Shown: one piece after another, positions 906-44,445 of the stretch
Position numbering within the stretch: the stretch's first letter is position 1
How the letters are laid out: every line of letters starts with the position of its first letter
DNA from: Candidatus Omnitrophota bacterium
GTDB taxonomy: Bacteria; Omnitrophota; Gorgyraeia; Duberdicusellales; 4484-171
Length of the DNA stretch: 64,000 bases
Assembly (NCBI GenBank): GCA_024231025.1
Contig: JAAEQW010000090.1
Span: 21,490-85,489 of the forward strand
Direction: 5' to 3'
Translations under genes and position numbers: made by a program
The notes under the pieces: generated by a model
What the model saw: the letters and a program-made list of their open reading frames with translations, nothing else
What the model was told of the DNA's origin: nothing
The model's database searches: none

Positions 906-1052
906 ATTTCATTTTTCTATAAAGATTTCGGCATTATCTACTGCTAAAATTCTACCACTCCTTTGAAGTTTCCTCAACAAAAATTAAAACGCGATAAAGA
1001 TTGTAAAGATTATGAAAAAAAGATATAATAAAACTACCATTAAGGAGGGTAT

Positions 1053-1385: not shown

Positions 1386-1386
1386 C

Positions 1387-2714: not shown

Positions 2715-2998
2715 TTCTGTTCGCCAGTCGAATCCTTCAACATACTCTGAATAAATTCACTTACCGGATGTGTTTTATTGTTGATGGCACTGTTAACTAA
2801 GGTGTCCAGCTTGCCCGGAGATTCTATGATGCGTCTTATTTTGTCGAGATTAAAATCAACTTCATTATTAAAATAATCTGCTAGATCGACCATAAATTGA
2901 TCGACGCTATAATTATTACAATAATCGCCAAGCTCAAAAAACTTTTCTTCTCTTTGCTTGCGACGAAATTGGATATCTTCGTTATCGTTATTTTTCAT
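2711..2998 (-). CDS. Hypothetical acidic protein (95 aa)
   Basis: ORF only. It overlaps its neighbours by 4 nt and 1 nt, which suggests translational coupling. No recognisable motifs. Confidence 0.3.
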   Translation of the reverse strand: MKNNDNEDIQFRRKQREEKFFELGDYCNNYSVDQFMVDLADYFNNEVDFNLDKIRRIIESPGKLDTLVNSAINNKTHPVSEFIQSMLKDSTGEQN

Positions 2999-9619: not shown

Positions 9620-12600
9620 TCACGCCGCAAGATCAAAGACAGGTTCTTCTTGTTCCTGATCAGCTTTTTTGAAATCACGCTCAATAGTAATGATTTGAAA
9701 TGTAAAGCCTTTGAAAGTTTTAATGTCAAAAGGAAGTGACTCAAAATTAGAAAATGGCGCAATGGAGCCACCTGTTTGCGACTCTTCATCTATCTCTAAC
9801 ATTTCTGGATTAAGATCAATACCGCCGGGATTGGTGTTTGGGAGTGTAGCGTCGACCTCTCCCCCGGCGGTTTGTTGTGCCGACGCTAAATAATCTAAAT
9901 GATTTTTCTTTTCATTATTTTGGTCAAACAAATTAGCCCCGACCAATGCTGGTCCTGCACTATTTTCTATAGAAGAATTTTGTTGAACGGTTAGAATTTG
10001 GTTACCATCAAACGCTTGTTTTAATTTATCCCAATAATTCTTTTCGCCTATAACCAATAGATTACCCTTTGTTTTTACTTCTGAGGATAAGCGCTTGGCA
10101 ATTTTGGAAAAATGATATCGATTCATCCAATAGCAGCTGACATATTCAGCGCAAGCAGTTACCACTTTGGTTCCAACAACTTCCCTGTTTTTAGCCTTCG
10201 TATGCATCGCTAAGATTTTCTCATCAGCAATTGTTCCATTGGATGATTGCGCGGCCCGAACCTCTCGATCCCACTCCATAAACAAATCGATCTCACCATA
10301 TTCTTTACACACCCTAAACAAATCATGCCTAATATCAACAAGTTGACGCCCCTCTGCTAAACTATCATCCAAAGATATAATTTTCTTGAAAAATCTAGAT
10401 GAGGTTGCGGCCAAATAAACCAGGGGTCCGTATAACGTTAAGAATGTATCCTCAATCTTGTTACGCTTAAATCCCAAATTCTCCATCTTAATCGTAAACG
10501 CATCGATCAAACCAACCAATTCGTTAATCCGCTCGAAACCACGGTCGCGCGTAAACCCTACCGCAGCAACATTACTAACGCCACCGCGGAGAAGCGCTTT
10601 TTTTATCGAACGCAATTGCTTTCTGTAAAGATGTGTTTGCCATTGGAAATTGAGATCAAGATCTAAAACAAGATCTTTAAAATACTGAGCATCACCATCA
10701 TCGTAAGCTTTGATTAAAAATTCTAGAAATTGACCGATATCCTGAGAAGCTTTCACAGGCTTAACAATAAAAACATCTTTCTTGTCTAGCGAATCTCGTT
10801 TTATCCCCAATTCATTTTTCCCAGATAATTCTCGAGCATATCTAGTCATGCCTAACAAATGGCACCCCCCAACAACAGTCATCGCAACACCATCCTTACC
10901 TACAATCCCGCTTGCTTCATGCAGCGTGTTTTCAATCATTGCCCGATCCCTATCTTTTGCCGATAACATAAAAAAGTTAAAAGAATCGCAATAATTACGA
11001 ATTACCCCCAATGGGATGCGTTCTTCTACACCAATCTCTTTCATAATTGCCAAAACTTCTTTCGAAGCAATTGAAGTCGATTGGCTCAAATCGTATAACC
11101 GATCAGACAAATCAATACTCTCTTTAGCGGTAAGAAATTCAACAATCTTCTTTCCATAATAAGCTGCAGCCTCTAAATAGACACTCGCTTCTTTACGCAG
11201 CAAATCATCATCGATAGCCACAAAATGCACCTGATCAATGAAATCCCTCATATGTACATGAAAATATCCTAGCACCCCGTAGGTAAGGAGAGTAAAATCA
11301 TCGGCAATCTCTTCAATATTATTTTCCAAGTAATTGACGATATCTTCTAAGTTTGAAACATTATTACCTTGCTTCTTTTTATCAGCAATGTAGATCCGGA
11401 CATTAGAAAAATGCGCCTGCATATTCGCGATAATATGCCGATGCCCATTGAGAGCTTCTTTCCGTACTCGTTCTACCCCCTGATGAGTTAATTCTAATCC
11501 CAACATAGCAAGTTTACCGCAAGCCGCTATCTCTCTAATCGTTTCTATATCTTTTTGTAACGAGTCCATCACCTTGCGTTCAGTTTGAAGTAAAGTGAAA
11601 AGATCCCAACAGTATCTCACGCTGGAAGCAGCATTGAGAACATTATTAGAAAGAGCCTTCTCAATCATGTCGTATTTTAAGGAATCGGCATGGCTATACC
11701 CTAATATCGCTAAGTCCCCTCCCGAAGCAATGCCTCCTCGAACATATCTAAGCACGCTATCATGATTTCGCACACTGCGATTACTGACACCGGAAGCTCT
11801 GGCAATAGCCTCTGACACCGGACCCACACCAAGGCTAACCGCTCCTACACCAGCCGCCTTAAAGAAACTCCTTCTGTTTATTTCCATCGGCTTTAGTATC
11901 TCAGCGCCTCTATCCTTATACTCAGCTTTAATCTCTGATAGATTGCGCTCAGTTACATCAACTTCAACATTGATCCCTATTTTCTCAAGCTTTTTCTCCA
12001 GGGCCTTGGCATTTTTACGGTCAAATGGATCAGCGTCAATCAAATATTCATATAGACCGTCTATCTTCTCTCCTTCAGGCAGGCGCTCATTAATCAACCT
12101 CTCAACATCCAATATTGTCATCATTAAACCGAGTGGCATATCCTCTTTCTTCAAAACTCCAGCAAAAGCTAAACCAAAAAAATTAGCCAACTCTTCTTCC
12201 TGCTCCTTCAATCCCTTAGAAAGCCTGCCAAAAAGACGCACTTCGTCGAACAAAGCATGGGCAGTTTCATGGCCATCAACAAAACGAATCGCTTCCTCCA
12301 GTGTTGGAACCCGACCAAATTTATCAGCAAGATCACTGAGCTGCTCTTCCAACTGCTTGCGATTCAAATGAACCCGCCGAATTAACCTACCATCCTCATG
12401 AAACCGAGCATGCAACCCGTGGATTATATTGGCGATGGTCAGTGGAGAAACTAGTGGTGGAAAATATTCAGTATCGGCGTCGGAAGTAACTGGCACAACT
12501 ACATCAGAGAGCCCTTCTTCATCGCTGGTAATTTGATGACTTCTTGAATTTGGATCAATATCGACCCTTGACGAAGGAATGCTAACAGCCTGGGACTTCG

Positions 12601-15600
12601 CACTCATAGCGGCTTTCTTTAATAATGTTTCCATATTAGAAAGCATCATCGATACTTCTTCGATGCTGTTGGCAGCAATAACATTATCTAAATCCGGCAA
12701 CTCCAGGCCTTCTGCTTTTAAATCGCTGGTTAACTCATTATTTAATTTTGCCATATATAATTGCTTACCGGCACCGCCATAATTCAAAACAATAACTTTT
12801 TTATTGTTTTTCAAAGCTACTACTGCTTCGTGAATGGTCCCTAAACTACCATTCAACACGATCATGACATCCGCCACCATTGCCATACCTACACGGCGCT
12901 GGTGCATATCCTTACCAATATATTGTACCGCTACTCGATTATTAGGAGATATCCTACTGTAACCAACAGCACTCATTCCTTGAGGTAATAAAGCAAAAAA
13001 CCGTTCATCACTATTCTGACTCAACGAACAAACCCCCTGATAAACATCTTTTCCTACCCCTGGAACACCACCGGTAAATACATAACCTTTATCTTTTACG
13101 TAATCAGCTAAGCATCTCCCTAATTCTTCTCCTATTGTAGGAGAGTAATCTGATGACGGGCTAACCGCGCCGATAACTCCAATCCTTATCCCTTCATACT
13201 CTTGCCGTATATATTCTGCTTGCCATTGTATTTCATCCCCTTCCTGATCGCTACGTCTTCGCGTTACGTCTTTTTGACCAGGAGGAATCTTTTCGTGAAA
13301 AAATATTTCTAGCAACCATCGAGTCGTATCTGGACTATCTACCCCTACCCCACTCGGCATAATCAACATTGGGTAATCATTCCCTTCAACACTATAACTA
13401 TTACCTATTTTAAGAATATCTTTCTGTTTTATTCCTGTTTGTTGAGCAAAGAAACTGGCGGCATTTCCTTTATTTACTTCCAAAGGCACTATATTCAGGT
13501 TAACTTCAGTATCAACTACTTTATATTTATGCATCAGACCTAAATCACCTAAAGCCATTTTTAAAGCAATAATCAACTCCTCCTTTTGCTCATTGGTAAC
13601 ATTATCTACAGCAATAATCGCTGAACGTTCAGTTACTTTAAAACCAAATTTCTCTAAATCCGTTGATTGTAATTTACCAACTATGCTTCTTCTATCCTGT
13701 GAATCAATAGCGTAACTGGTAAGGATCTCATCATTCCCTACGTCATAACACCCTGCCCCATTCTGCTCAAAAACATAAAGATTTTTTAATGCTTCTGAGT
13801 TTACTCTCCTGCGCATTCTTCTAACAAACACTTTATCTATCGACTTCGATCTGCCGCTTACAATACCCACCTTATACCCTGCCTCTAACATCCCGGCAAT
13901 TAAGTCTAAAATTTCACTGGATATTTTTTTCCCTCGAAGCTTCAAGGTGCCATCAATATCTAAGAGTACCCCACCGAACCTTTTATCTGCCCTAAAAGGC
14001 AAACTATCTAAATTATCTTTTTCAGCGACCGGCACTGCTCTTTGTTCATTCAAATCTACTAATCGCTCAACAATAGCAAATTGCCTTAGAAACTCATCTT
14101 CAAAAGTATGAGACGGATTTACTCCTTGACGGTTAACAACAAATCGTTTGCTGATATGATCATCGATGGAACCGCTAAGATGTTTATCCTGACCATTAAG
14201 CTGTCTCATGTAATCAGGCATATCCTGATTAGAAACATTGACAGCAGCAACAAACAGTCTCGATTGATTAATGGGATCTAATCCATCAATGCTGTCAGGA
14301 TTAAACGCCTCTGGCTTATCTCTCACTTGCCGATTTGACCATCGCCCACCCATAGTTACTGAAATATCGCTACGATTCATCGGATTATAATACTCACTTC
14401 TATAGGCATTGGCATCTCGATCTGGTATTGCTAATTCTTGCTTTAATCTTCTCAACTTATCTACAAATCTCATAATCATTTCATATGAAGAATAAACTTG
14501 ACCTTCATTACGTTGAGGATTGAAAAAATCCTGAAAATATTCCTGCTCTCTTAATTGATCCGCGCCTTCAATAAATTTGTCTCCTGCTAAAACATAATTA
14601 ATCAAAAGCATGACGTTAACAAAGGCTTTATGGGCATCAGGATAACGTGAACCACCTTGCACGTCACGCATAAAACTATTACTGCCGTCCATCATTACTA
14701 CTTCGGGTTGTTCTTTTAACATGAATCTTAAAGTATCATCATCGAAAAGCTGTTCTTTTCTTTTTGCACAAATAAGATGTTCATCATCATGGGCCTCAGT
14801 AGAACCAACCCTTACTTCAGCGATTTTTATCCCTAAGCTCTCTAAGCGAGTCTTTATTGGCGTCGCGAGAAACCAACCATAAGAAAAATTCGGCACGACT
14901 AAAACCTTTCGACCGGAATTTTTTAGAGCAACCACAAAGTCGAAGAACTTTTTCACCTCATAAGAAGTATAAGATAAGGCGGTTTTGGTTGAATCCTCCA
15001 CTTCATCTTGCGATAAACGGTTAAAATTCTCTAATATCTCCCTAAACCACTCAAAAGTATAAGTCTCTCGTTCTGACTCTCTCCCGCACTGACGAACATA
15101 CTCATTACAAAAACGACTATACTCTAAAGCTACTTTTAATTCATCATTAGGGTCAAAAGAATTATTAACTTGAGGATTATATACTCTCCAAATAGCCATC
15201 AAACTCTGGGGATCATTCGCCGCATCAATTCTTTGATTAAGAGTAGCCGAAGGATAAAATCCATTCTCTAAAAGCAATTTAGTATTTTCTACAAATTTCT
15301 GAGATATTTCATCTGACCGTAATGGCAATATAGAATCATAGGTAGAAGGATTATTTAATGCAGGTATAAATGTCTGTGATTGATGCAAAACCACAATAAA
15401 ATCACAAACGACCTCAAGATTTTCCTTGGTAACGAACTCGCTTTCAACTAATCTTTGCAGCATAGAGTACGCGGATTCTACTGTTTGTGCTGGTAAATGA
15501 TCCTTTACCTTTAGAGAAAATACAACTTCAACCATAATATCAAGGATGGCTTTTGCCTGGTTATTATCTGCAGCATGCAGCAATTTTTCTTTTAGAGACT

Positions 15601-18600
15601 CGAGATCGCTATATTCTAATCGAGGTTGGCTATGAATCAAACCAACACGCAATGCGTCGTAAAAAAATCTTCTACTATCATACTCAATACTATCGCCGGT
15701 TAAACCCAGAATAACCCTCGCTCTTTCCTTGGTGAACTCAACTTTACCGAAAAGACCCCTAAAAAATTCGAAATCACCAGATTTTTCATCCCAACAAGAG
15801 ATCAAAAGAGAAGCAAGTTGAATTTTTTCGAAACTACCATCTTCTGCCCAGCCAATAGCATCAATCAGCCCTCCAAATGAAAACGGCAAAAACGTAAGAA
15901 ATTCATTGCTTAAGATGCTAAACAAGCATTCTCGCGCTTGTGAATTTTGCACTTTACCAATTACTACCGCTAAATTATTAAATAAACTTGGATCTTTTCC
16001 GACTACATGCACTAAATCTTTCGCGATTCGTTTAGCTACCAAATTCTCACTTGAGATGCCTCCTTGAGAAACAATCCCGTCAATTGCTTTAACAATCAAA
16101 CCAGGATTACTAACTAATACCATGCCAATCCCAGCACCAACACGACCCTCTGTCCTTTCTACCACACTAAGTATAGTTTTGAAATCATCCTCATCGGGTC
16201 GCATCTGCTGATTACCAACGAGAGCGTGAGCAAAAACCGCGCTAAGCTCTCTTAAAGTTTCTTCATCTTCTGTGGTTGCTAATTTTGTAATAAAAATATC
16301 CTTGCTTGATTCAGTCAAAGAAACGTTCTCATTATTTTTGAGGAGGTTTTTTAAGACAGTGGCGGCTCTTTTTAAATCCTGCTCGTTATCAGCCCTGTCA
16401 ATTAAGACAAGTAGGTCTTCGGCATGATCTTGGCTGCTAAAACAGTGCCCGCAAACATAAGCGATCGCCGCTTTTGTTGAATCATTCTCTGTCTGGTTGA
16501 ATGATTGCGTCACTTTGTCGTTTAAACCAGAAAAATTAATAGCGTCTTCTTTAATTGCTCCGTAGCTGAAAGTCGCCGCCAAACGCCCATCAGTTTTTTC
16601 AAGCGCGGAAAGAATAGAGTCTACGTCTTCAGGGTCTAACCATTTATCTACTTTTGCTGCCCATGCTATATTAGGTAAAAGAGCCAGGATACTCTCTAAA
16701 TCTTCTTCATTTTCTTGATCACTAAACTCAGAGACAAGAGAGTTAAATTTGTTAAGAACGATTCTAAGACCTGCTTCGCTAATATTTAAATTATCCCTGT
16801 TTTTTTGCTTAATAATTGCCATCAAGATTGAAGATGCTTTAGCTAAAACCTGCTTGTTCTTCGAATCTCTTATTAAATTCAATAAAACTTCAAATTCTTG
16901 AGCATTAAACTTAGAAACAAATGGAAGAGCTATGTCGCGGCCAAGCGCATCATCGAGAACGGAAAGGATTGCTTCGCGCAAAGAATCATCACCAATACTA
17001 GCCAACGCACTGAGGATATCAGAAACTAAAGCTCTTGGCGCGCTACTGTCGCGAAATGCTGAACTAATAATACGCTCAAACCAATCAAAAGTAATCTTAC
17101 CCGATACGCTTAGGGTAATAAGATCAGAAATTAATTTAGAGACCGAATCATCTTTTTTGCCACGCCGTAAAACACTAATAAGAACAGATTCAACAGTACT
17201 TTTTAAATTTTCAAATTGAACATTATTAGTTGCTAAATCAACCATCTCCGCAAGCACATCAGGATTACACTCTAGGGCACCCTTAAACACCCAACCAAGA
17301 TGCTCTTTAGCCCTATCATCTACGGCTCTTTCGCGAGCCTGATATAATATCATTATTTGGTTACAATTAAGCTTAATTGCAGGATCGTCTCTATCTTGTT
17401 TTAAAGCTAGTGCGAGCGAACGCATAGTCGCATCATCATCTGAATTTTCTATCGCGGTCAAGATTCGAGTAGTAAAGCCCGGGTTGTATTTTACCGCCTC
17501 CCCTAAAACAAGCGCGTAGCAAACCTTGATTTCGTTCCTTTCAGGATCATGCGTTGATTGTTCCGATACTGAAAGAGCTAATTCAATTATGCGCGGATTA
17601 TTAGATAATAGCCGTTCTCCAATAGATTTATTCACCCCCCACATGTAATCATCTGAAACACCGACGAATATTCCAGCTAAAAGTGCCAGGTTTTCTGCGG
17701 TTTGTTCTAAATTATCACTAATAATCTCATCTTTAAAAACAAAAAAAGCAGAATTGAAAAAATCTTCAAGCCTCTGCTCATGGATAGATTCCCTTGTGCT
17801 ATTAGTATTCAGCACAACGCTCAACAGTTTATCGAGAATCTCATCTAAATTTTCTCTAGTTTGTTCTATACTATCTTCTACTATGATAATATCCTTTAAG
17901 GACGTAAGAAAATTGCTAAACAAGGGTTGAAGGTAACTTTCCGGCCCAGAAGCTTTTCGCTTAGGACTACTGGATCTTCGTATTTTATTGAGAAAAAATC
18001 TTAGCTCATTGCCGATCTCCTGTAAATTAGTAATCGTTTGTTTAGGGTCATCTTCTACAATAATCACATCTCTTAAGGAGGAAATACCGAGAAGTATGTA
18101 CTTTGCGTCATCGATCCCTGCTTTAGTACATAAATCTATTAATTCCTGTGGTAGCCCTTGTGAGTGTTTAATAATTTCCTGAAAACCAGAAGGAAGCTCG
18201 TCAAACGGTATGTCAGTAAAAGGATAGAGCTTTTGAAAGTATTCCGATTGCACTGAATTTCTCTGAGTCTGATTTTTTTTAATAAATGTAGTTAGGGCTT
18301 TATCGGGCCCGAGTAATTTTGGATACTCATCCGGCATAATTTGTTTGGCTGCTGCTCGCAGTAAATCATGGCCTGACGCTTTCGAAGAGAGCAATTTGTA
18401 ATTTTTAAAAGCACGCAAAAGAGCGTCACCCTCAATAGTCAATCGTGCCACCTCCGAATTTTGATTATTCTTTAAGACTAACTTCCCTTTAAGCCATCCG
18501 CGCTGAGTCAAAAACCTAAAAACTCTGTCTAAGCCAAAACCACACAATAGCTTGGCAATCGCCCCTTTCACTTCTATTTTTATTAATCCTCTCTTTAATA

Positions 18601-20428
18601 AATACTCGCCAATCTCATGCGTCAATGCCAAGCCTTTTAATTTTGGATCATTATAAATATCACGATAAAGAGCAATAAGATTCGGATTGTCCAAACCTTG
18701 TTCCCTGGCAAAACCAAATAAATCTTTAATTAACTTCAAAAAAGTAAAAAGTTTGGGTCTGTCTTTAGAAGGAAGTGTTTGAGCTAAATCCAATATCGCT
18801 AAAAAAAACTCAAGTCCAGTTTCCTGATCTCCAAGGTCCATTCGCTCAATACTCTCCCGAGCCAATAAAGCCGCATCAAGATCCTCCAAGTCAAGATCAA
18901 CCGCCCCCAACTTTTTCCCCTCACCATCAAACACCTCAACAACCCCCACGCTTCCTTCAACCTTAACCTCTCCTGCTACAGCCTGATTTCCGATTTGCGC
19001 AATATCGCCTGACTTATCCTTTGAAGAAACATCAGACGGCGATTCTTTGAGCTGACTACCAGAGACTAATGCCCCATCAATGCCATCAATTTTAATTTTT
19101 GCCATTGTTGGATGATCATCAGTTTCTTGTTTAATCAGTTGATCATGTTCTGAGCTTGTGCCAACTTCTAATTGGTCTGGAACCATTTTGACAATTTCTT
19201 CAAGACTCGCGCCCCCCGAATAATATCTGCGATTGAGTTTTTTATTTAAATGCGGATCAAAATCACGACGAATATAATTGTAAACACCTTTTTTGTAAGC
19301 TTCTAAATATTGGTTATAGATTTTCTCTTTTATCTCGGGGTCATCCCCTTCAACCCCGGCAATTTTGTTTTTGTCGAAATATATCTGGTCTAGGATGTTA
19401 GTCTTCGCTTCCGGGGACACGTACCGTTCTCGGCCTTCGGCCTGCGCTTCCCTGCCCGTCCGGCAGGCGGGCGGTACATGTCCCCGTGGGGTTTCGACAG
19501 TCTGGCGAAGCCGTTTCTTAAACCAGGTTGCCAAAATCAATGCATTATATATTTGACGTAATTGACTGAAAGACTGCCCATTGTTTACTTCTTCTTCGAT
19601 TGCCGGCAAGATCACTTCTTTTGCAATTTGGGTAGAAATATTATTAGAGGGCACGGCACGCCGTGCCCCTACGATGTTTTGTTTTTGGGCAACACCTGCC
19701 TGCCCGTCCGGAAGGCGGGCCTGCTGGTAGGCAAGGTAATCTTCTTCCAACATAATCTTAAGACGACTTTCTTTAACAAAGGCACGATTTCCTGCCTGAT
19801 GAACCACACATTTTTCAGGAACAATCCAAATCTTATTAAATGTATTAAGTGGTATTTTGGTTGTGCCATACAACTGATAGGCTCGACTATAAACCTTCTT
19901 CCAAAATTCCTTGCCTAATGGACTCTCCGGATAAGTTAAAGATGCGGTTAATTGCTTTAAAATATAATCTTCGCCTAAAAGATCGCGGCCCATATCAGTT
20001 AAGCCTAATTCGTAAGGAATTACGCTATCTTTTTCATAAGGCGAAAGATTAACCCAAAGGTCTTTTGCCGGAGTGGTTAACGAAGTAAGAAAATACTTTA
20101 TTAGTTGTTGGGTCTGAATCTTTAACTGCTCATCACTAAGGACCGCATCACCTTCATCAATAATAAAGCTAAATTTAAATGGGTCATTAGGCGAAAACTC
20201 TAAGCCCCGCAAGGTAATTGGCTCAAAATTGAGGGTAGTTTTGACAAGCTTAGTGGGAGCAGGCATATACTCCAATGCGGAAGTATAGCCCGGACGAACC
20301 AGATATGTGGAAAAAATAGATAGCAGAAAAACACATATAAAGAACCCGATTAGGGCTCGCAGTCGAATTCCCGCTCGTTTTTTATAGAATAGTAAAATCA
20401 TAAACCAAACACCATATAAATGTAACAT
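9620..20428 (-). CDS. Giant multi-domain protein (3602 aa). It has an N-terminal TM anchor plus a roughly 400-aa domain shared with the 38194-44445 protein. Downstream are long HEAT/ARM-like helical repeats, a HAD-IIB phosphatase-like domain (motif LLDIDGTL, about 13300-13990), a SLOG/LOG (TIGR00725-like) Rossmann domain (about 12770-13200), and a TraB/GumN/TIKI-like domain with GxxH...GxxH (about 10800-11750). A conserved C-terminal module is shared with the two other giants.
   Basis: One uninterrupted 10.8-kb ORF. The domain calls rest on motifs read from the translation: DIDGT; GGxPGxG...NGSLGTIHE; ILGYSH...VVGGCHLLG. The C-terminus is PGGIDLNPEMLEID...PFDIKTFKGFTFQIITIERD. Confidence 0.85.
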   Translation of the reverse strand: MLHLYGVWFMILLFYKKRAGIRLRALIGFFICVFLLSIFSTYLVRPGYTSALEYMPAPTKLVKTTLNFEPITLRGLEFSPNDPFKFSFIIDEGDAVLSDEQLKIQTQQLIKYFLTSLTTPAKDLWVNLSPYEKDSVIPYELGLTDMGRDLLGEDYILKQLTASLTYPESPLGKEFWKKVYSRAYQLYGTTKIPLNTFNKIWIVPEKCVVHQAGNRAFVKESRLKIMLEEDYLAYQQARLPDGQAGVAQKQNIVGARRAVPSNNISTQIAKEVILPAIEEEVNNGQSFSQLRQIYNALILATWFKKRLRQTVETPRGHVPPACRTGREAQAEGRERYVSPEAKTNILDQIYFDKNKIAGVEGDDPEIKEKIYNQYLEAYKKGVYNYIRRDFDPHLNKKLNRRYYSGGASLEEIVKMVPDQLEVGTSSEHDQLIKQETDDHPTMAKIKIDGIDGALVSGSQLKESPSDVSSKDKSGDIAQIGNQAVAGEVKVEGSVGVVEVFDGEGKKLGAVDLDLEDLDAALLARESIERMDLGDQETGLEFFLAILDLAQTLPSKDRPKLFTFLKLIKDLFGFAREQGLDNPNLIALYRDIYNDPKLKGLALTHEIGEYLLKRGLIKIEVKGAIAKLLCGFGLDRVFRFLTQRGWLKGKLVLKNNQNSEVARLTIEGDALLRAFKNYKLLSSKASGHDLLRAAAKQIMPDEYPKLLGPDKALTTFIKKNQTQRNSVQSEYFQKLYPFTDIPFDELPSGFQEIIKHSQGLPQELIDLCTKAGIDDAKYILLGISSLRDVIIVEDDPKQTITNLQEIGNELRFFLNKIRRSSSPKRKASGPESYLQPLFSNFLTSLKDIIIVEDSIEQTRENLDEILDKLLSVVLNTNSTRESIHEQRLEDFFNSAFFVFKDEIISDNLEQTAENLALLAGIFVGVSDDYMWGVNKSIGERLLSNNPRIIELALSVSEQSTHDPERNEIKVCYALVLGEAVKYNPGFTTRILTAIENSDDDATMRSLALALKQDRDDPAIKLNCNQIMILYQARERAVDDRAKEHLGWVFKGALECNPDVLAEMVDLATNNVQFENLKSTVESVLISVLRRGKKDDSVSKLISDLITLSVSGKITFDWFERIISSAFRDSSAPRALVSDILSALASIGDDSLREAILSVLDDALGRDIALPFVSKFNAQEFEVLLNLIRDSKNKQVLAKASSILMAIIKQKNRDNLNISEAGLRIVLNKFNSLVSEFSDQENEEDLESILALLPNIAWAAKVDKWLDPEDVDSILSALEKTDGRLAATFSYGAIKEDAINFSGLNDKVTQSFNQTENDSTKAAIAYVCGHCFSSQDHAEDLLVLIDRADNEQDLKRAATVLKNLLKNNENVSLTESSKDIFITKLATTEDEETLRELSAVFAHALVGNQQMRPDEDDFKTILSVVERTEGRVGAGIGMVLVSNPGLIVKAIDGIVSQGGISSENLVAKRIAKDLVHVVGKDPSLFNNLAVVIGKVQNSQARECLFSILSNEFLTFLPFSFGGLIDAIGWAEDGSFEKIQLASLLISCWDEKSGDFEFFRGLFGKVEFTKERARVILGLTGDSIEYDSRRFFYDALRVGLIHSQPRLEYSDLESLKEKLLHAADNNQAKAILDIMVEVVFSLKVKDHLPAQTVESAYSMLQRLVESEFVTKENLEVVCDFIVVLHQSQTFIPALNNPSTYDSILPLRSDEISQKFVENTKLLLENGFYPSATLNQRIDAANDPQSLMAIWRVYNPQVNNSFDPNDELKVALEYSRFCNEYVRQCGRESERETYTFEWFREILENFNRLSQDEVEDSTKTALSYTSYEVKKFFDFVVALKNSGRKVLVVPNFSYGWFLATPIKTRLESLGIKIAEVRVGSTEAHDDEHLICAKRKEQLFDDDTLRFMLKEQPEVVMMDGSNSFMRDVQGGSRYPDAHKAFVNVMLLINYVLAGDKFIEGADQLREQEYFQDFFNPQRNEGQVYSSYEMIMRFVDKLRRLKQELAIPDRDANAYRSEYYNPMNRSDISVTMGGRWSNRQVRDKPEAFNPDSIDGLDPINQSRLFVAAVNVSNQDMPDYMRQLNGQDKHLSGSIDDHISKRFVVNRQGVNPSHTFEDEFLRQFAIVERLVDLNEQRAVPVAEKDNLDSLPFRADKRFGGVLLDIDGTLKLRGKKISSEILDLIAGMLEAGYKVGIVSGRSKSIDKVFVRRMRRRVNSEALKNLYVFEQNGAGCYDVGNDEILTSYAIDSQDRRSIVGKLQSTDLEKFGFKVTERSAIIAVDNVTNEQKEELIIALKMALGDLGLMHKYKVVDTEVNLNIVPLEVNKGNAASFFAQQTGIKQKDILKIGNSYSVEGNDYPMLIMPSGVGVDSPDTTRWLLEIFFHEKIPPGQKDVTRRRSDQEGDEIQWQAEYIRQEYEGIRIGVIGAVSPSSDYSPTIGEELGRCLADYVKDKGYVFTGGVPGVGKDVYQGVCSLSQNSDERFFALLPQGMSAVGYSRISPNNRVAVQYIGKDMHQRRVGMAMVADVMIVLNGSLGTIHEAVVALKNNKKVIVLNYGGAGKQLYMAKLNNELTSDLKAEGLELPDLDNVIAANSIEEVSMMLSNMETLLKKAAMSAKSQAVSIPSSRVDIDPNSRSHQITSDEEGLSDVVVPVTSDADTEYFPPLVSPLTIANIIHGLHARFHEDGRLIRRVHLNRKQLEEQLSDLADKFGRVPTLEEAIRFVDGHETAHALFDEVRLFGRLSKGLKEQEEELANFFGLAFAGVLKKEDMPLGLMMTILDVERLINERLPEGEKIDGLYEYLIDADPFDRKNAKALEKKLEKIGINVEVDVTERNLSEIKAEYKDRGAEILKPMEINRRSFFKAAGVGAVSLGVGPVSEAIARASGVSNRSVRNHDSVLRYVRGGIASGGDLAILGYSHADSLKYDMIEKALSNNVLNAASSVRYCWDLFTLLQTERKVMDSLQKDIETIREIAACGKLAMLGLELTHQGVERVRKEALNGHRHIIANMQAHFSNVRIYIADKKKQGNNVSNLEDIVNYLENNIEEIADDFTLLTYGVLGYFHVHMRDFIDQVHFVAIDDDLLRKEASVYLEAAAYYGKKIVEFLTAKESIDLSDRLYDLSQSTSIASKEVLAIMKEIGVEERIPLGVIRNYCDSFNFFMLSAKDRDRAMIENTLHEASGIVGKDGVAMTVVGGCHLLGMTRYARELSGKNELGIKRDSLDKKDVFIVKPVKASQDIGQFLEFLIKAYDDGDAQYFKDLVLDLDLNFQWQTHLYRKQLRSIKKALLRGGVSNVAAVGFTRDRGFERINELVGLIDAFTIKMENLGFKRNKIEDTFLTLYGPLVYLAATSSRFFKKIISLDDSLAEGRQLVDIRHDLFRVCKEYGEIDLFMEWDREVRAAQSSNGTIADEKILAMHTKAKNREVVGTKVVTACAEYVSCYWMNRYHFSKIAKRLSSEVKTKGNLLVIGEKNYWDKLKQAFDGNQILTVQQNSSIENSAGPALVGANLFDQNNEKKNHLDYLASAQQTAGGEVDATLPNTNPGGIDLNPEMLEIDEESQTGGSIAPFSNFESLPFDIKTFKGFTFQIITIERDFKKADQEQEEPVFDLAA
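19411..19489. repeat. GC-rich palindromic element inserted in-frame in giant gene 1. Its inverted arms CCGGGGACACGTACCG / CGGTACATGTCCCCG flank a nested GCCCGTCCGGCAGGCGGGC hairpin. It is translated as ...PRGHVPPACRTGREAQAEGRERYVSPE...
   Basis: The arms are exact reverse complements except for one mismatch. GC content is far above the surrounding gene. The paralogous giant 2 has no insert at this position. Confidence 0.6.
19649..19722. repeat. Second in-frame GC-rich palindromic insert in giant gene 1. It contains the GGGCACGGCACGCCGTGCCC hairpin plus a CTGCCCGTCCGGAAGGCGGGC hairpin and is translated as ARLPDGQAGVAQKQNIVGARRAVP.
   Basis: Both hairpin types also occur intergenically, at 8564-8583 and at 781-800 / 24757-24777. 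The paralog (giant 2) carries a different palindromic element at the equivalent position. Confidence 0.55.
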
Positions 20429-38193: not shown

Positions 38194-41100
38194 TTACCGC
38201 TCAACCGGCAAAAGCATCTGGGTGAGTTCGCTTGAGGAGATGTCTTCGATTGAGGTAACGGTGAAGATTAATCCTTCATAGCTAAACGTAGGGGCGCCGC
38301 TTGTCTGCGCCCGCTTCACAAAAACCCCCTCCCCTTCGGTTTGGAGGTTGAAGTTTTTGCGTAGCATGTCGATGCCACCGACACCACCATTATTCTCAGG
38401 AAAAGTAACTTCATAGACATACCCCGAAAAACGTAAACTTCTCCTGCAATCTACATAATGTTGCCTTTCTATTTTAACACCTTCATATTCCGGTTGGCTT
38501 AACAATTCTTTTATCAAACTATCGACCTTTTTAAATTCCGTGCTTAAGCCATAGGTTCCAGCTACAATTTTTCCTCCTGGCTTCACTACCCTTAAAGCCT
38601 CCTCTAGTACCTCCTTAGGGTGGGATACCGGAAACAGATCAGAGAGAACACCAGTTGAGGTCATCACAACATCTTGACTATGATCGGCTAACTCTTTCGA
38701 CTTAGACCTTTCTCCCGCTGAAAATTCACCTAAAATGTGCTTAATCTCTCCTTTCAATTCCTTTCTAAAAAAAGGCTTCTTTAAAAAGATATCAGCAGCA
38801 TCTTTACTCATTAAATGCGCTCGAGGGTCTAAACTGTACGCAATATAATCAATCTCTAAAGTTGATGTAACTACCCCTAAACAACCTAAAGGATAGGTAC
38901 CATCTATCCCAACATCAACAACTGAATCACCACTTTTTAATCCGAGCCCATTTAAAAAACTAACTACCTCCTTCCAATCATCTCCCCCCTTTATGCGCTT
39001 AAATCTTCGGATTGCAAAATCATCTTTGGTTCGTTTTTTAATAATCACACCCTTAGGTTCCTCCTGCCTGGATGAACCGCCCCGGGAATGGATTGCTGCT
39101 GGTGGCTTAAGTGGTCTCTTGCCTTTCTTGGGCTTGCCGTTACCCACACCTGGCGCTTGGAGAAAATCACCCCGCCAAGGTTTGCCTGAAATTCGTCGAC
39201 CAGCATCAGCCGGAGCAGGCAAACCTTCATTTTCAAGTTTCAAGAACTGATCCTTTATCTCCTCGCTCATAACCTTAAGGTATTCAGGCTGATTGAATAT
39301 CCAGTGACTAGCGCCTTCAATTACTATCTTTACGGTCTCTATCTCTTCGCCCTTGCTGTTATGAAATTTCCTATCCTCTATCTGATAGGGAAATCGAAGT
39401 TCACCAGAAATGCTAATAATTCTTCTTAAATGTGGATTGTCTATAATCTTTTTTGCCTTATTCAACATCACCCCTTCTATTGCAACGATAGTTGAAACTG
39501 GATATTTTTCTTGCTCAATCGCCTGAATCCATAAATCAAAACCAGCGCTATAGGCAACAGGAATAAATGGTTTTTCAGATAGTTGTTTAGGTATTTTTTC
39601 AGTTATTTCTCTCACCAGCTGCTTGCGCTTAAAAAGGTATCTATGAATATCTAAGACTCGCCTAATTTCTTTAAATATCGCGTTTTTCGGCCATTTCTCG
39701 CTTCGTTCAAACAGCGAAACACTATACACCTCTTTTGCTTGATTTGCTAATAGCTTGAAAAAACCTTCCATATATTCTGGCAATCCACTCCCCCAATTTT
39801 CCACCCCATTCGAAACCACAAAAGGCGAAGAACTATTGGTTAAAGAAAAACCAGAACCGTCCGTTTTATTGATTTCATAAATATATCCATTAAAATCTAA
39901 CCCTTCTCTATAATTAACATAATTTGGTTCTCCCACCCTAATACCTTCGTATTCCGGTTGGCTTAGTATCCTTTTTATCAATCTCTCAACTCTTTCGAGT
40001 TCAGGTTTCATGCCATAAGTTCCTGCTACAATTTTCCCTCCTGACTTCACTACCCTTAAAGCTTCCCTTAGCGCCTCTTCGGGATTGGAATCCGGTGCCG
40101 GATCAGAAAAAACACCAGTTAGGGTTATCACAACATCTTGACTATGATCGGCTAACTCTTTTGACTTAGACCTTTCTCCCGCTGAAAATTCACCTAAAAC
40201 ATATTTAATTTTTCCTTTCAATTCTTTTCTAACCAAAGGATTCTCTAAGAACATTTCGGCAATATTTTCACTTTTTTCATGCGGTCCACGCTGCAATCCA
40301 TACCCCACATAATTAATTCCTAAGCTTGACACGACTAACCCTAAATAACCCGAGAAATGAACCCCCTCAACCCCAACATTAGTAATTGAATCACCGTTTT
40401 TTACTCCTAACTTATTTAATAATCCAACCGCTTCTTGCCATGCCCTTTCGCTTTTTATATTATTAAATATTCCCAAATCCTCAAGATCCTCTGCAGTCGG
40501 TTTATCCGCAATCGCACCATCAATCTCTTTAATCGGCATAATTATAGTAAATGTTGTGCCGTGGTTTTGGGAATCTTCTTCAATATGGCGGCTTTTGACA
40601 TTGATTGTTGCGCCTAAATCATCGATAAGCTCTTTAACTATTGATAAGCCAATTCCGGTACCAAGATTACCTTTGGTAGTTTTGCCTTCTTGAAAGATCC
40701 AGCCATCTTTTAGTTTATCTTCAAAGATACCAATACCATTATCGGTGATTGAAATGATTACGTTATTATCGGTTTGTTTTACACTTGCGCTAACTTCCCC
40801 CTGATAAGGCTCATCCTTGATTTGCTCACACTCCCTAGTCGCATACGCAGCATTATCAAATAAGTTGCTCCAAATAAAATCAAGCTGGATTGCGTTAGCC
40901 TCCATCTGGACACTGTCATTACGCGACATTTGCCAATCAACCTTTTTGTAAATATTGCGATACCTCTCTAACGCACTATACAGAGATTCCCCGACACCTA
41001 CTATTTTCATTTCGGCAGAGTCGTCAATGGCATCTTTTAGATCTTCTAGAGCATCCAAAGCACCTTGCCCTCTTCGTCTGACCTCCAGTATGGTATCGAT

Positions 41101-44100
41101 CATTTCATCCAACTTTCTATCCAACTTCTTATCATCACTACCAGCTAAGTCACCTTTAATCAATTGAAGAAAATTAATTACTTCTTCTTTCGAATCTATT
41201 ATTTCCTCTAATTGCGTAATTAAATCTACGACTATTGCGTAAACTAAAGATGGGAAATCTAACCTCACAGTTAAGTTGAATATGGCAAAGGTAGAGGCAT
41301 CGACGATGTTTCTGAGATTTGTTTTTAATCTTTCACTTTTTCTCGATAATTTTTCCCCTAATTCAATCCTTTTATCATCTTTATTTTCGCTTTCCCTTAA
41401 CTTTTCCAATACCGAATCAATAAGTCCAAAATCAAAAACACTAGGCATTATTCCATGTGAGTACGATTTTAGACCGATTTTATCAATTAACGCCTTAATC
41501 GTTGTCGGTGGATTAGGATAACCTTTTGATTTTAACTCAAGCCTGCTTAAGATAATCAAATAATCTATGCTATCCTCTGAAGATGTTGTTACAGCTTCTT
41601 CCTGATCGTACATATATTTAAAATAAATTAAGTACTTTTTAAGATAATCTTTCTCCTGCTCATCTAACTTTCGCTCACTTGAAATCTCACGTAATTTTTC
41701 CAGATTAATAATGCGTTCTTTTATAAGATAATAACTTTTTACTCTTTCAAATTGCTCCTTTACATAAACCATATCATCATCGATAGGATGTTTGGGGTAG
41801 AGTTCTTCCATGTAAGTAATTAAATCCTGCAAGCCGCTTTTCTCTTTGTCAGCTTCCCAATCATCCTGATAACCATCGGGAATATTTTCAAAAACATACC
41901 CCATAATCTTTGCTAAACTATAAATGTCCCAAGAAGGATAACGAGGGTAAAACCTTAATCCACTCGGAATAAAACTATCCATCCCTGAGCGCCTAGGCAT
42001 TGCACCAATCGGCGCAACGAATTGAGGATCAATCATTCCAACTCGCCTTTCTTGATTAACGATTATATTGCGCGGATTAACATCACCAACAACAAGCTTT
42101 TGTTTGTGAACGTTTTCGCAAAAGCTGAGAACTTTGGCAAAAACATCAATTTGTTCAACAACAGAAAAACTACCAAAAATCTCTCCCACCTCAAACCAGC
42201 TATCAACAACTTGATAACCTTCTATTTTAATTACCTTTTTTCCAATTTGTTGACCACCAGAGATATTCTCCTCAGTCATCTGAAGATTACCATCTTCATC
42301 AACACCCGCTCCTTCTTTTTTTAACTGTGAAAACCCCGGCATATCGAGTTGATTAAATTTGACCAGAGTTCTTAACTCGCGCATATTCATTTTATTTTCT
42401 AATGCCAGGATGCTTTCGCCTTCTTTCCTATATCCACCACCAGAAACTTTACAAAAAATTGCATCATCATCAGAAAGAGAATAAATAGTAGAATACCCTC
42501 CAACACCTAACACAGACCTACCTAACGTATTGACAATTGCATTGGTAAAGTACGGGCTAAGTAGCGGATCGTTTTTTATTGCATCTAGATAATATTGCCG
42601 AACTTGTGCAGCGCTTGTGTGAACCGGCAATGGTTCATGCTCTGAGAAAGTATACTTTATCGCAGCAGTTTCTTCTTTAGTAAGTTGTGGCGTTTTTAAA
42701 GAAGGGAAATTATCCAAAATGGTCCAAAGCCCTCTCGCACTTATGCTTTTAAAATAATCCGGTAAGTAATACCTGCTATCGTCTTCGCAAACCATTCCTA
42801 CATCTGATAAGATTTGTAGTGAATTATTTACCCCTTTATCATGTCCGATCGCTACCATTTCACGCTCAAACCCTTCAAGCGTTTTAGCCTTATCTTTAAA
42901 GATTTTATTCCTCATCATATACCCTAAAAGAACATCCGGAGTCACTTCCAAAATGGAATCAGAAACCGACCCACCACGGGGATGGTTTGCTGCTGGTGGC
43001 TTAAGTGGTCTTTTGCCTTTTTTGGGCTTGCCGTTGCGCGCACCTGGCGCTTGGGGAGAATCCCCTCGCCGAGGTTTACCTGAAACTCGAGGGCGAGATT
43101 CAAGAGAAATAGAACCGTTCCTATTTTCATCAACTGTTCGGCCAGAAGCAATAATTCTTTTGGCTTTGGTGGCAGAAAACATGCCAGAAGCAACGGCATC
43201 GCTAATATTTTGTGCGACTTTCAAGTTGTTCGGTAAAGAAATAAAATTGCACCCTCCGGAGAAATATTTTCGGTTGATGCGTTTGTGAGTTGTTGGGTCG
43301 CGTTCGGGTTTTATGTAATTGTAGACGCCTTTTTTGTAGGCTTCGACGTAAAGATTATAGATTTTATCTTTGGCGCCTTTGCCTTCTAGGTCAATGCCTT
43401 TTATTTTGCCTTGATCGATGTAATGTTGATAGAAGGTATCTTTGAACTTCTCTTTGAACCATACCGCAAGGATTAGGGAATGATAGATTTGACGCAAGCG
43501 TGCGAAATTCTTCCCGTGATTTACGTCGTGGGATATTTTAGGAAGGATTGTTTCGCGCATCAGGCGAGATGTTATTTCATTTACTTCCGGGGACACGTAC
43601 CGATCCCCGACTACGTCGGGACTTCCGGTACATGTCCCCGTCCGATCCGGTACATGTCCCCGTGCAACATAATCGTCCTCAAGCATTACCTTCATCGTGG
43701 CTTCGGTGATATAGGCGACATCTTTATTTTCATAGACTACGCTTTTATCGGGCGTGATCCAAACCTTGTTAAAGGCGTTGATGGATAAATCAGAGACGCA
43801 AAGTTTTGCGTCTCTACAGTCTTCATAAACCTTTTCCCAATAATCTTTTCCGGTTTCACTCTCTGGATAAGTTAAAGAAGACAAAAGCTGCTTCAGAATA
43901 TAATCCTGACCCAACAGATCCTTTCCTAGATCGGTTAGGCTCAAATCATCTGGAGCAACTCTTGTCTTTTCGTAGGGAGACAAGTTAACCCACAATTCCT
44001 CTTCAGGAAGGGTCAAACCTGCCAAAAAATACCGGATAAGACGGCTTGCTTCCTCTTGGTTAATATCTTCCTGATTAGCGGTGTCAACGATAAATTCAAT

Positions 44101-44445
44101 ATTTAGAGGATTCTCAGGGTCAAAGCGCAACCCTTTCAATACAGAGTAAGAATAATCCTGGGATAACGGAAGTAACTTAGTTGGAGATGGTAAATTATAC
44201 GCATGAGCGTGACTTATCGCGCCCTTGCCCTTAAGGCGCAGCAATCCCGGCAACCTGCCCCGATCGAATAGTCGGGGAATCGCTGCCGCCAATATTGCTA
44301 CCGCCACAAAAACAGCAATTACCCGAAAAGGTACAGACCCCTTCCTTAATGTAATTTTTCGAATCACAATTTGTCTCCCTACAAATAAAAAAGCATGGAT
44401 CTCGCCTCCCCAGGCATAAATCCATGCTTCCCTAATATATACCAT
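38194..44445 (-). CDS. Giant multi-domain protein (2083 aa). It has the N-terminal TM anchor and roughly 400-aa domain shared with giant 1. A basic Pro/Gly/Lys-rich linker is followed by a eukaryotic-like protein kinase domain (VVGDVNPRNIIV, about 41800-42900), a HATPase_c (GHKL) domain (about 40520-40950), a class I SAM-methyltransferase-like domain, an alpha/beta-hydrolase-like domain, a second copy of the linker and methyltransferase-like domain, and the shared C-terminal module.
   Basis: Continuous 6.25-kb ORF. The motifs read are: glycine loop GVGGYSTIY; catalytic D-x-N-P-x-N; N-box LFDNA; G1 DNGIGI; G2 GTGIGLS; methyltransferase motif I VVDVGIDGT and motif III VVKPGGKIV. Confidence 0.85.
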   Translation of the reverse strand: MVYIREAWIYAWGGEIHAFLFVGRQIVIRKITLRKGSVPFRVIAVFVAVAILAAAIPRLFDRGRLPGLLRLKGKGAISHAHAYNLPSPTKLLPLSQDYSYSVLKGLRFDPENPLNIEFIVDTANQEDINQEEASRLIRYFLAGLTLPEEELWVNLSPYEKTRVAPDDLSLTDLGKDLLGQDYILKQLLSSLTYPESETGKDYWEKVYEDCRDAKLCVSDLSINAFNKVWITPDKSVVYENKDVAYITEATMKVMLEDDYVARGHVPDRTGTCTGSPDVVGDRYVSPEVNEITSRLMRETILPKISHDVNHGKNFARLRQIYHSLILAVWFKEKFKDTFYQHYIDQGKIKGIDLEGKGAKDKIYNLYVEAYKKGVYNYIKPERDPTTHKRINRKYFSGGCNFISLPNNLKVAQNISDAVASGMFSATKAKRIIASGRTVDENRNGSISLESRPRVSGKPRRGDSPQAPGARNGKPKKGKRPLKPPAANHPRGGSVSDSILEVTPDVLLGYMMRNKIFKDKAKTLEGFEREMVAIGHDKGVNNSLQILSDVGMVCEDDSRYYLPDYFKSISARGLWTILDNFPSLKTPQLTKEETAAIKYTFSEHEPLPVHTSAAQVRQYYLDAIKNDPLLSPYFTNAIVNTLGRSVLGVGGYSTIYSLSDDDAIFCKVSGGGYRKEGESILALENKMNMRELRTLVKFNQLDMPGFSQLKKEGAGVDEDGNLQMTEENISGGQQIGKKVIKIEGYQVVDSWFEVGEIFGSFSVVEQIDVFAKVLSFCENVHKQKLVVGDVNPRNIIVNQERRVGMIDPQFVAPIGAMPRRSGMDSFIPSGLRFYPRYPSWDIYSLAKIMGYVFENIPDGYQDDWEADKEKSGLQDLITYMEELYPKHPIDDDMVYVKEQFERVKSYYLIKERIINLEKLREISSERKLDEQEKDYLKKYLIYFKYMYDQEEAVTTSSEDSIDYLIILSRLELKSKGYPNPPTTIKALIDKIGLKSYSHGIMPSVFDFGLIDSVLEKLRESENKDDKRIELGEKLSRKSERLKTNLRNIVDASTFAIFNLTVRLDFPSLVYAIVVDLITQLEEIIDSKEEVINFLQLIKGDLAGSDDKKLDRKLDEMIDTILEVRRRGQGALDALEDLKDAIDDSAEMKIVGVGESLYSALERYRNIYKKVDWQMSRNDSVQMEANAIQLDFIWSNLFDNAAYATRECEQIKDEPYQGEVSASVKQTDNNVIISITDNGIGIFEDKLKDGWIFQEGKTTKGNLGTGIGLSIVKELIDDLGATINVKSRHIEEDSQNHGTTFTIIMPIKEIDGAIADKPTAEDLEDLGIFNNIKSERAWQEAVGLLNKLGVKNGDSITNVGVEGVHFSGYLGLVVSSLGINYVGYGLQRGPHEKSENIAEMFLENPLVRKELKGKIKYVLGEFSAGERSKSKELADHSQDVVITLTGVFSDPAPDSNPEEALREALRVVKSGGKIVAGTYGMKPELERVERLIKRILSQPEYEGIRVGEPNYVNYREGLDFNGYIYEINKTDGSGFSLTNSSSPFVVSNGVENWGSGLPEYMEGFFKLLANQAKEVYSVSLFERSEKWPKNAIFKEIRRVLDIHRYLFKRKQLVREITEKIPKQLSEKPFIPVAYSAGFDLWIQAIEQEKYPVSTIVAIEGVMLNKAKKIIDNPHLRRIISISGELRFPYQIEDRKFHNSKGEEIETVKIVIEGASHWIFNQPEYLKVMSEEIKDQFLKLENEGLPAPADAGRRISGKPWRGDFLQAPGVGNGKPKKGKRPLKPPAAIHSRGGSSRQEEPKGVIIKKRTKDDFAIRRFKRIKGGDDWKEVVSFLNGLGLKSGDSVVDVGIDGTYPLGCLGVVTSTLEIDYIAYSLDPRAHLMSKDAADIFLKKPFFRKELKGEIKHILGEFSAGERSKSKELADHSQDVVMTSTGVLSDLFPVSHPKEVLEEALRVVKPGGKIVAGTYGLSTEFKKVDSLIKELLSQPEYEGVKIERQHYVDCRRSLRFSGYVYEVTFPENNGGVGGIDMLRKNFNLQTEGEGVFVKRAQTSGAPTFSYEGLIFTVTSIEDISSSELTQMLLPVER
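43587..43663. repeat. GC-rich palindromic element inserted in-frame in giant gene 2, translated as RGHVPDRTGTCTGSPDVVGDRYVSPE. Its left arm CCGGGGACACGTACCG is identical to the giant-1 element at 19411. Its right arm CCGGTACATGTCCCCG is tandemly duplicated.
   Basis: Direct reading. The identical 16-mer contrasts with the otherwise diverged paralogous flanks. Confidence 0.6.

Follow-up and report, generated by a model that had tools for sequence, protein, structure and literature searches.

Head and tail modules bracket variable cargo in a large family of Omnitrophota proteins with a predicted Sec-type leader

The Omnitrophota are widespread, uncultured and ultra-small bacteria, thought to be predators or parasites, and the N-terminal regions of their giant proteins have been reported to 'generally lack identifiable domains' (West-Roberts et al. 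2023, 10.1101/2023.11.21.568195). These giants present a paradox, described in the same study and also in 10.64898/2026.06.07.730766: their enzymes are of a cytoplasmic type and are predicted to be extracellular. We have analyzed a stretch of 64,000 nucleotides (hereafter the window) of contig JAAEQW010000090.1 from a Candidatus Omnitrophota bacterium (assembly GCA_024231025.1), in which a reading of the open reading frames (ORFs) revealed three very long ones, every one of them on the minus strand; their products are termed here G1, G2 and G3 (Table 1). An earlier examination of this DNA (the original prediction) had noted that G1 and G2 share an N-terminal domain of roughly 400 residues. Judged by sequence comparison, this similarity is only the most conspicuous part of an architecture that extends across the phylum. 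Its anatomy is firmly supported: a Sec leader is followed by a constant head, which forms the mature N-terminus, by a soluble cargo of extreme variability and, at the very end of the chain, by a constant tail, and genomes contain many ancient paralogues of this design. The function that we infer for it is weighed further below. The Omnitrophota giant- or long-protein papers examined describe N-terminal regions as devoid of recognizable domains or the proteins as sparsely annotated, and none of them names a shared head or tail module; what is new here is that both modules were found to bracket the cargo in thousands of Omnitrophota proteins, behind what appears to be a Sec-type leader. The finding bears on the puzzle posed by the large multi-enzyme proteins of this phylum, namely what they do, where they are located, and why enzymes of a cytoplasmic type are predicted outside the cell.

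The Omnitrophota giants of the two studies cited above come from the same phylum and contain, as does the present family, methyltransferase, HATPase_c, HAD, HD and metabolic enzyme domains. They differ in being above 10-30 thousand residues (kaa) in length and in carrying many transmembrane (TM) helices, SecA-DEAD and C39 domains, none of which characterizes G1-G3. Similarly, the 'Archaeovorin' or dockerin-type giants exceed 30 kaa and have numerous TM helices together with SecA-DEAD and C39 peptidase or dockerin/TSP3 domains, whereas G1-G3 measure 2.1-3.6 kaa and carry no such Pfam domain. Their cargo, on the other hand, does match the 'Module 1' domain set (10.64898/2026.06.07.730766).

Three classes of secreted proteins from outside the phylum are comparable in layout. 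Cargo proteins of the type IX secretion system (T9SS) of Bacteroidota have a Sec signal peptide, often with a Gln right after the cleavage site, cargo of great diversity and, at the very C-terminus, a short module that is conserved among many paralogues of a genome. They belong, however, to another phylum and have no conserved N-terminal head, and the tails of G1, G2 and G3 match none of the T9SS C-terminal domain (CTD) models (NCBIfam TIGR04183/TIGR04131, Pfam); T9SS CTDs, at about 80-100 residues, are also longer than the ~65-residue tail. TpsA proteins consist of a signal peptide, a TPS domain of ~250 residues which acts as the secretion signal, and a very long variable passenger, and thus resemble the present family in having a conserved N-terminal domain after the signal peptide of very large variable proteins. 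In contrast to the family, they possess no conserved C-terminal tail; the head gave no Haemagg_act match even at E 10, and its model is alpha/beta with hairpins and not a beta-helix. No TpsB/Omp85 partner was present among the Pfam-scanned neighbors in the window, and none was recurrent near the 79 related loci described below. Adhesins of the RTX type secreted by the type I secretion system (T1SS; LapA/MpIBP type) combine a constant N-terminal retention module, a variable middle and a C-terminal signal of ~60 residues, and giant size is possible for them; T1SS substrates, however, lack the Sec signal peptide that the head-tail family has according to a rule-based call, and the giants of the window have no RTX/HemolysinCabind match and a middle composed of enzymes rather than adhesin repeats. 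As every defining feature tested for these classes was found wanting, the family is placed outside T9SS, TpsA and RTX proteins alike. Sortase and exosortase signals (LPXTG, PEP-CTERM, GlyGly-CTERM) differ as well, in that the tails have no C-terminal TM helix followed by a basic cluster.

The original prediction had likened the two giants to polymorphic toxins. The latter (Rhs, CDI, MafB) do share a constant N-terminal region combined with variable domains, as well as multi-copy and often tandem genes, but the analogy is not a good fit: in the present family the variable part is central rather than C-terminal and the conserved tail comes last, the payloads are housekeeping-type enzymes and not recognized toxins, and neither an immunity-like gene downstream nor a transporter was recurrent near the family genes (79 loci and the window).

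Head, tail and leader

When residues 1-500 of G1 and G2 were compared by BLASTP, G1 55-423 and G2 85-411 were joined in one alignment with 40% identity, 61% positives and an E-value of 9e-95, which bears out the claim that the two giants can be aligned over their N-terminal ~400 residues. The shared head comprises ~330 residues and has the conserved start LNLPxP, while the similarity between G1 and G2 spans about 370 residues and continues slightly beyond the end noted earlier, up to an invariant ...R(K/R)Y(F/Y)SGG. The segment for which the prediction was made, 19200-20428, corresponds to G1 aa 1-409, that is, to the signal peptide (20276-20428) and the head (19199-20275). The motifs LWVNLSPYEK, DLLGxDYILKQLxxSLTYPES, FNKxWIxPxK and IYNxYxEAYKKGVYNYI were found in both proteins; they are not of low complexity, and many of them are invariant in 100 homologues. 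Across these homologues the head displays 29 invariant columns, with N127, E132, D154, Y155, K158, K199, N282, R291, Q292, K304 and Y374 as invariant polar residues. The G1 head is up to 61% identical to heads from other genomes and 40% identical to that of G2, and because it is closer to the former, the paralogy of the two heads must be old.

A search with G1 aa 1-427 returned 1,087 proteins, with 41-58% identity among the matches listed, and a second search returned 1,397. The named matches derived nearly all from metagenome-assembled genomes (MAGs) of Candidatus Omnitrophota/Omnitrophica; one was labeled Auribacterota, which is likewise a PVC phylum. A head profile built from 100 sequences was run over 1.84 billion representatives of 50%-identity clusters. 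At E<=1e-3 it detected 8,395 of them, 6,854 of which also reached E<=1e-30. Among the 150 representatives listed, the head match begins within the first ~40 residues (as a single stretch in 149 of them), and the proteins are 420 to 5,312 aa long. At least 573 head loci were found in species-representative genomes (one per species). The titles of the 79 loci kept for analysis were mostly Omnitrophota, with about 26 assemblies titled 'uncultured Planctomycetales', one 'Planctomycetales bacterium' and one 'bacterium'; nearly all of the titles were thus either Omnitrophota or PVC-group. Several MAGs contributed at least four loci to the best 80, several had at least five family genes, and 19 of the 79 loci contained more than one head ORF, frequently in tandem. 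Proteins that start with this domain are present in many other genomes, and these searches place G1, G2 and G3 in a very large family which is almost entirely confined to Omnitrophota.

Neither head nor tail was matched in Pfam (even at E 10), in NCBIfam or in PADLOC, and a sequence-profile search of the PDB with the head was also negative. AlphaFold2, supplied with the 100-sequence alignment, returned a confident model of the head (pLDDT, the predicted local distance difference test score, 84.5; pTM 0.80), of a mixed alpha/beta type with three beta-hairpins (aa 72-91, 200-227 and 384-403) and six long helices; the two low-confidence loops (aa ~240-260 and ~312-345) are the variable, insertion-prone parts of the alignment. 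Foldseek searches of PDB and BFVD with either of two independent models yielded nothing significant (best E 0.25-0.4, TM-scores around 0.1). The head can therefore be regarded as undescribed, as had been proposed, and according to the model it apparently represents a new fold. ClyA-family pore-forming toxins and PX domains were recurrent among the top non-significant Foldseek matches; as the head is without a hydrophobic hairpin, the likeness to ClyA is kept as a lead only. A reading of the head motifs as a lytic transglycosylase was rejected, fold and profile support both being absent.

The original prediction had confined the shared part of the giants to the N-terminal head; the head stood, while a conserved C-terminal tail, present in all three giants, had been overlooked. 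The last ~60-70 residues of G1, G2 and G3 are homologous (42% identity between G1 and G3, E 2e-17) and constitute a tail module of ~65 residues with the consensus GGIDLxxxxLNLQxxxxGxxIxFxxDPxxLxxLxxxxGFxPVIINIxPxxNLxxLLG, which can be aligned with the C-termini of many database matches. The G3 tail was a weaker match to the hidden Markov model (HMM) of the tail, at 8.2e-5. In the fetched loci this HMM located the tail at the extreme C-terminus of 61 out of 68 complete head-bearing ORFs; it was also present in 112 of 133 long representatives, in one copy each and at a median distance of 12.5 residues from the stop. Ten ORFs contained a tail only. Nine of these lay at a locus end, at a scaffold gap or after a frame break of a head ORF, and the tenth is G3, which is seen in part only, its N-terminus, with the expected head, being located beyond the window end. 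An exact-protein look-up of the neighboring UDG gene and an exact search of a metagenome collection with 60 nt of DNA, both meant to reach this N-terminus, returned nothing. Head and tail are tightly coupled, and G3 is almost certainly a third member of the family. Together, HMMs of the two modules provide a census tool, by which the whole set of candidate substrates may be picked in any genome.

The smallest arrangement was observed in P0051, a protein of 438 aa in which head and tail are joined by a 9-residue linker; its gene is complete, is located on a 32-kb contig, and is followed, in tandem, by that of a family member of 1,110 residues. No tail contains a segment at a Kyte-Doolittle hydrophobicity of 1.6 or higher, and the tail ends are acidic or polar. 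A 44-nt DNA repeat is common to the G1 and G3 tails. The peptide 'KGFTFQIITIE' in the same two tails was considered as a prepilin-type signal and rejected, as its Glu is at +9 and not at +5; the family consensus, GFxPVIINIxP, which lacks that Glu, also contradicts this reading.

A single hydrophobic segment was identified in G1 (aa 26-44) and in G2 (aa 38-56) at a 19-residue Kyte-Doolittle mean of at least 1.6; the same scan detected no second segment in either protein, and none in the windowed part of G3. The G1 leader is composed of a basic n-region (KKRAGIRLRA), a hydrophobic core of 19 residues and a predicted cleavage site, TSA↓LE, after residue 51. The G2 leader is atypical, with ~25 mostly basic residues between the core and a possible AHA↓Y site; since this site is unusually far from the core, the G2 leader may remain uncleaved and be kept as a signal anchor. 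Over 213 full N-termini of the family, the mean net charge around the hydrophobic core was +3.2 on the N side versus about 0 on the C side, and the N-side flank was the more positive in 210 of them. A signal-peptidase-type site, small-x-A↓Q, was found 5-10 residues before LNLPxP in 194 of 257 members (75%); at the x-x-A↓Q sites, position -3 was small (A, S, V, G, T) in about 90% and position -2 mostly aromatic (Y, F, H: 54%). According to these calls, made by simple sequence rules (charge, hydrophobicity and cleavage motif) rather than by SignalP, the hydrophobic segment resembles, in most members, a Sec signal peptide of the cleavable kind. Of the earlier description of the domain as 'TM-anchored', the single N-terminal hydrophobic segment was thus retained and the anchor was not: as the whole polypeptide would be exported and the leader removed in most members, the label is probably wrong for the family.

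An invariant Gly-Gly is present at both borders of the cargo, at the end of the head (...R(K)YFSGG) and at the start of the tail (GGID(L/F)); in G1 these are aa 404-406 ('SGG') and aa 3535-3538 ('GGID'). Such pairs could be structural turns, recombination joints or processing sites of the double-glycine type. C39 peptidase domains have been reported on other Omnitrophota giants.

Each of the G1 and G2 heads also contains a palindromic element of 69 nt (19415-19483 and 43591-43659, minus-strand coding), with terminal inverted repeats of ~14 nt (GGGGACAYGTACCG ... CGGTACGTGTCCCC). The element is in frame, contributing 23 codons ('GHVP...RYVS'), and is found in different variable loops of the two heads (G1 aa ~316-338, G2 aa ~263-285). 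The corresponding RNA hairpins have folding energies of -48 and -46 kcal/mol (z -4.6), and a 12-mer of the element occurs 5 times versus 0.08 expected, only at the two sites. It was absent from all 79 related loci, and it resembles the in-frame palindromic mobile elements of Rickettsia (RPEs). Inserts observed at the peptide level in the heads of other members, 'VGNGRDRSL'/'VGTGRDLSL', recur at differing positions; by analogy, these may be small DNA elements that repeatedly landed in frame in the variable loops of the head.

Cargo of the family

The claim that the payloads of G1 and G2 are completely different was confirmed: G1 aa 431-3523 and G2 aa 421-2012 are unrelated (best BLASTP E 2.7), and their Pfam contents differ. 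Pfam and NCBIfam recognized in G1 a HAD-IIB phosphatase (aa 2155-2360) and a SLOG/LOG-like domain (aa 2414-2561), the remainder being mostly unannotated. The cargo of G2 includes a kinase-like region (HMM matches within aa ~758-806 and weak PADLOC matches of the kinase type), a HATPase_c domain (aa 1185-1306) and two S-adenosylmethionine (SAM)-methyltransferase modules, which are an internal duplication. In G3, Pfam identified a transglutaminase core (aa 384-442) and about 17 HEAT repeats; the latter are encoded by a repeat array with a 99-nt period at 58784-60945 (Pfam HEAT_2, E 5.5e-111).

The cargo between head and tail has a median length of 969 residues (range 9-4,838), and no TM-like segment was found in 179 of 228 cargos. 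In 30 full-length members (48.6 kaa) only 21 Pfam families were detected at E<=1e-5, nearly all of them in one member each, in agreement with the proposed combination of a common N-terminal domain with unrelated payloads. They include metabolic enzymes (phosphoglycerate kinase, isocitrate lyase, malate synthase and UDP-glucose pyrophosphorylase), a set consisting of acyl-CoA ligase, acyltransferase, dehydratase, enoyl-CoA hydratase and PPTase, and also Ser/Thr kinases, PP2C, methyltransferases, an M48 peptidase and HEAT repeats. Precomputed Pfam tags of shorter members extend this list by HD, HAD, metallophosphatase, GNAT, shikimate dehydrogenase and a zeta-toxin-type kinase. Most of the cargo sequence across the family is without annotation; what could be annotated suggests that the cargo is mostly composed of cytoplasm-type enzymes.

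Several repeats and a relic-like motif were noted within the cargo. In G2, 38410-38709 and 39874-40173 form an internal duplication of 300 nt with 75% identity; as this repeat represents the two methyltransferase modules, it suggests that cargo grows by tandem module duplication. A direct repeat of 135 nt (39074-39208 and 42968-43102; 83% identity, without a special RNA fold) encodes a basic Pro/Gly/Lys-rich linker, 'SGKPxRGDxxQAPGxxNGKPKKGKRPLKPPAAxHxRGGS', with one copy directly after the head and the other in front of the second methyltransferase module; the linker could be mobile, or could have been left behind when a module was duplicated. In G1, aa 2850-2872 (11813-11881) resemble a twin-arginine signal, 'NRRSFFKAAGVGAVSLGVGPVS' (NCBIfam TIGR01409, 16.6 bits, below the cut-off of 16.7), and may be what is left of a formerly separate protein, exported by the Tat pathway, that was taken up into the cargo.

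Possible roles of head and tail

We propose that head and tail are sorting or retention modules of Sec-exported modular proteins, dedicated to a shared putative envelope machinery, a reading that in our judgment stands about midway between doubtful and assured. The polypeptide would be threaded through SecYEG, and signal peptidase I would remove the leader in most members; head and tail would then be recognized or retained by the shared machinery, which would sort the variable enzyme cargo. The possible outcomes of such sorting include export across the outer membrane, surface display in the cell coat, and hand-over to a host or prey cell. The head would accordingly act as a carrier or anchor and not as part of the enzymatic payload. 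By analogy, this would operate as in T9SS cargo, TpsA or RTX adhesins, and it is the most economical reading of the architecture; it turns the assignment of head and tail as sorting signals into a testable hypothesis.

Several observations weigh against this proposal. When 1,123 neighbor ORFs (from +-10 kb around the 79 loci, and from the window) were clustered all against all, response regulators and histidine kinases were the only recurrent neighbors, and no secretion or sorting gene recurred. Since no family other than these two-component proteins recurs within 10 kb, any dedicated machinery would have to be encoded elsewhere in the genome. No structural analogue of the head was found by Foldseek among known sorting domains in PDB and BFVD, and its invariant polar residues form a pattern that active sites and ligand-binding sites typically display as well. 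Many of the cargo enzymes (phosphoglycerate kinase, isocitrate lyase, malate synthase, acyl-CoA ligase, kinases, HATPase_c and methyltransferases) normally need cytoplasmic cofactors (ATP, coenzyme A (CoA), SAM), which is awkward for a periplasmic or extracellular site. The signal-peptide assignment, moreover, follows from simple sequence rules, and the G2 leader is atypical.

In a bolder version of the proposal, which we consider unlikely, head and tail would label the proteins handled by a new, Omnitrophota-specific export or delivery pathway, by which hundreds of different metabolic and signaling enzymes of the cytoplasmic type would leave these ultra-small cells. Their destination would be the cell coat or the interior of a host or prey cell; if true, this would amount to a new kind of effector delivery system that uses N- and C-terminal signals of its own.

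The dependence of the cargo on ATP, CoA or SAM would be more readily understood if the proteins were cytoplasmic multi-enzymes tethered to the inner membrane, with the leader as an uncleaved anchor and the head as a membrane-proximal scaffold that concentrates enzymes in a very small cell. The long basic stretch after the hydrophobic core of G2 is in line with such a topology, and the 'Module 1' proteins (methyltransferase, HATPase_c, GNAT, HAD, HD) have been read as compatible with the cytoplasmic face (10.64898/2026.06.07.730766). Under the positive-inside rule, however, the charge distribution in 210 of 213 members is the opposite of that required, 75% of the members have a conserved small-x-A↓Q site directly in front of the head, and a tether alone explains neither an invariant head of 330 residues nor a conserved tail; we therefore judge this scenario improbable.

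Another possible explanation, to which we assign a similarly low probability, is that head and tail fold or act together as one functional unit, either an enzyme or a ligand-binding domain, and that the cargo is inserted between them and modulates it; the conserved biochemical function would then reside in the constant part. The strict co-occurrence of head and tail, the many invariant polar residues of the head and the invariant GG at both junctions (...YFSGG, GGID...) are all consistent with such a unit, and so is P0051, a natural protein made up of head and tail with no more than the 9-residue linker between them. An AlphaFold model of this cargo-less protein had a pLDDT of 72.9 overall and of 58-88 in the tail, so that the tail is predicted to be ordered rather than disordered. 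In this model of head plus tail, however, the last head hairpin lost confidence relative to the model of the head alone. Mean-field direct coupling analysis of 216 natural head-tail pairs (effective number of sequences, Meff, 184) returned only artefacts of gaps and terminal columns and did not recover the hairpin contacts, and no known enzyme fold was matched by Foldseek.

Least probable by far is a head that acts as a membrane-active translocation module, distantly similar to ClyA/Nhe/Mak, and delivers cargo into host or prey cells: NheA, MakA, MakB, MakE, HblL1 and ClyA are among the best Foldseek matches of both independent models, Omnitrophota have been proposed in the literature to be predators or parasites, and cytoplasm-type cargo would fit the inside of another cell, but the ClyA-family matches fall short of significance (E 0.3-5, probability <=0.08, TM-score about 0.1), and the head has no hydrophobic hairpin or helix, with nothing at a Kyte-Doolittle value of 1.6 past the leader and a charged hairpin at aa 200-227.

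Features and surroundings of the giants

The positions of the giants and of their modules are listed in Table 1.

Table 1. Coordinates of G1, G2 and G3 and of their parts in the window
Feature	Position	Strand	Extent	Evidence
G1	9620-20428	minus	3,602 aa	
G1 signal-peptide-like segment	20276..20428	minus	aa 1-51	Hydrophobicity scan, family statistics, translation
G1 head domain	19199..20275	minus	aa 52-410	BLASTP vs G2, 100-homologue alignment, AlphaFold2
G1 variable cargo	9839..19198	minus	aa 411-3530	Pfam, NCBIfam
G1 tail module	9677..9838	minus	aa 3531-3584 of 3602: NPGGIDLNPEMLEIDEE...PFDIKTFKGFTFQIITIER	Tail HMM, alignment with other tails
G2	38194-44445	minus	2,083 aa	
G2 N-terminal leader	44200..44445	minus	aa 1-82	Hydrophobicity scan, translation
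G2 head domain	43240..44199	minus	aa 83-402	BLASTP, alignment, head HMM
G2 variable cargo	38392..43239	minus		Pfam, NCBIfam, PADLOC, direct repeat
G2 tail module	38218..38391	minus	aa 2019-2076 of 2083: GVGGIDMLRKNFNLQTEGEG...YEGLIFTVTSIEDI	Tail HMM, alignment
G3	55789..64000	minus	>=2,736 aa; stop-to-stop ORF still open at base 64000	
G3 tail module	55801..55986	minus	TPGGIDISAGMLNIDE...PFDIKTFQGFTFQIIRIER	Comparison with G1 tail, tail HMM

Between G2 and G3, at 44538-52259, there is a complete operon of the BatA-D/MoxR type, comprising a MoxR AAA ATPase, a DUF58 protein, two VWA proteins, TPR proteins and BatD; no tie between it and the giants was seen. Other neighbors recognized by Pfam in the window are of a housekeeping nature, and include EF-G, an aldehyde dehydrogenase, an ABC-F ATPase, a patatin, an amidase, FeoB, citrate synthase, ComM, DprA, a hybrid histidine kinase and UDG. 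The GC content of the window is 36-45%, and its GC skew is negative throughout.

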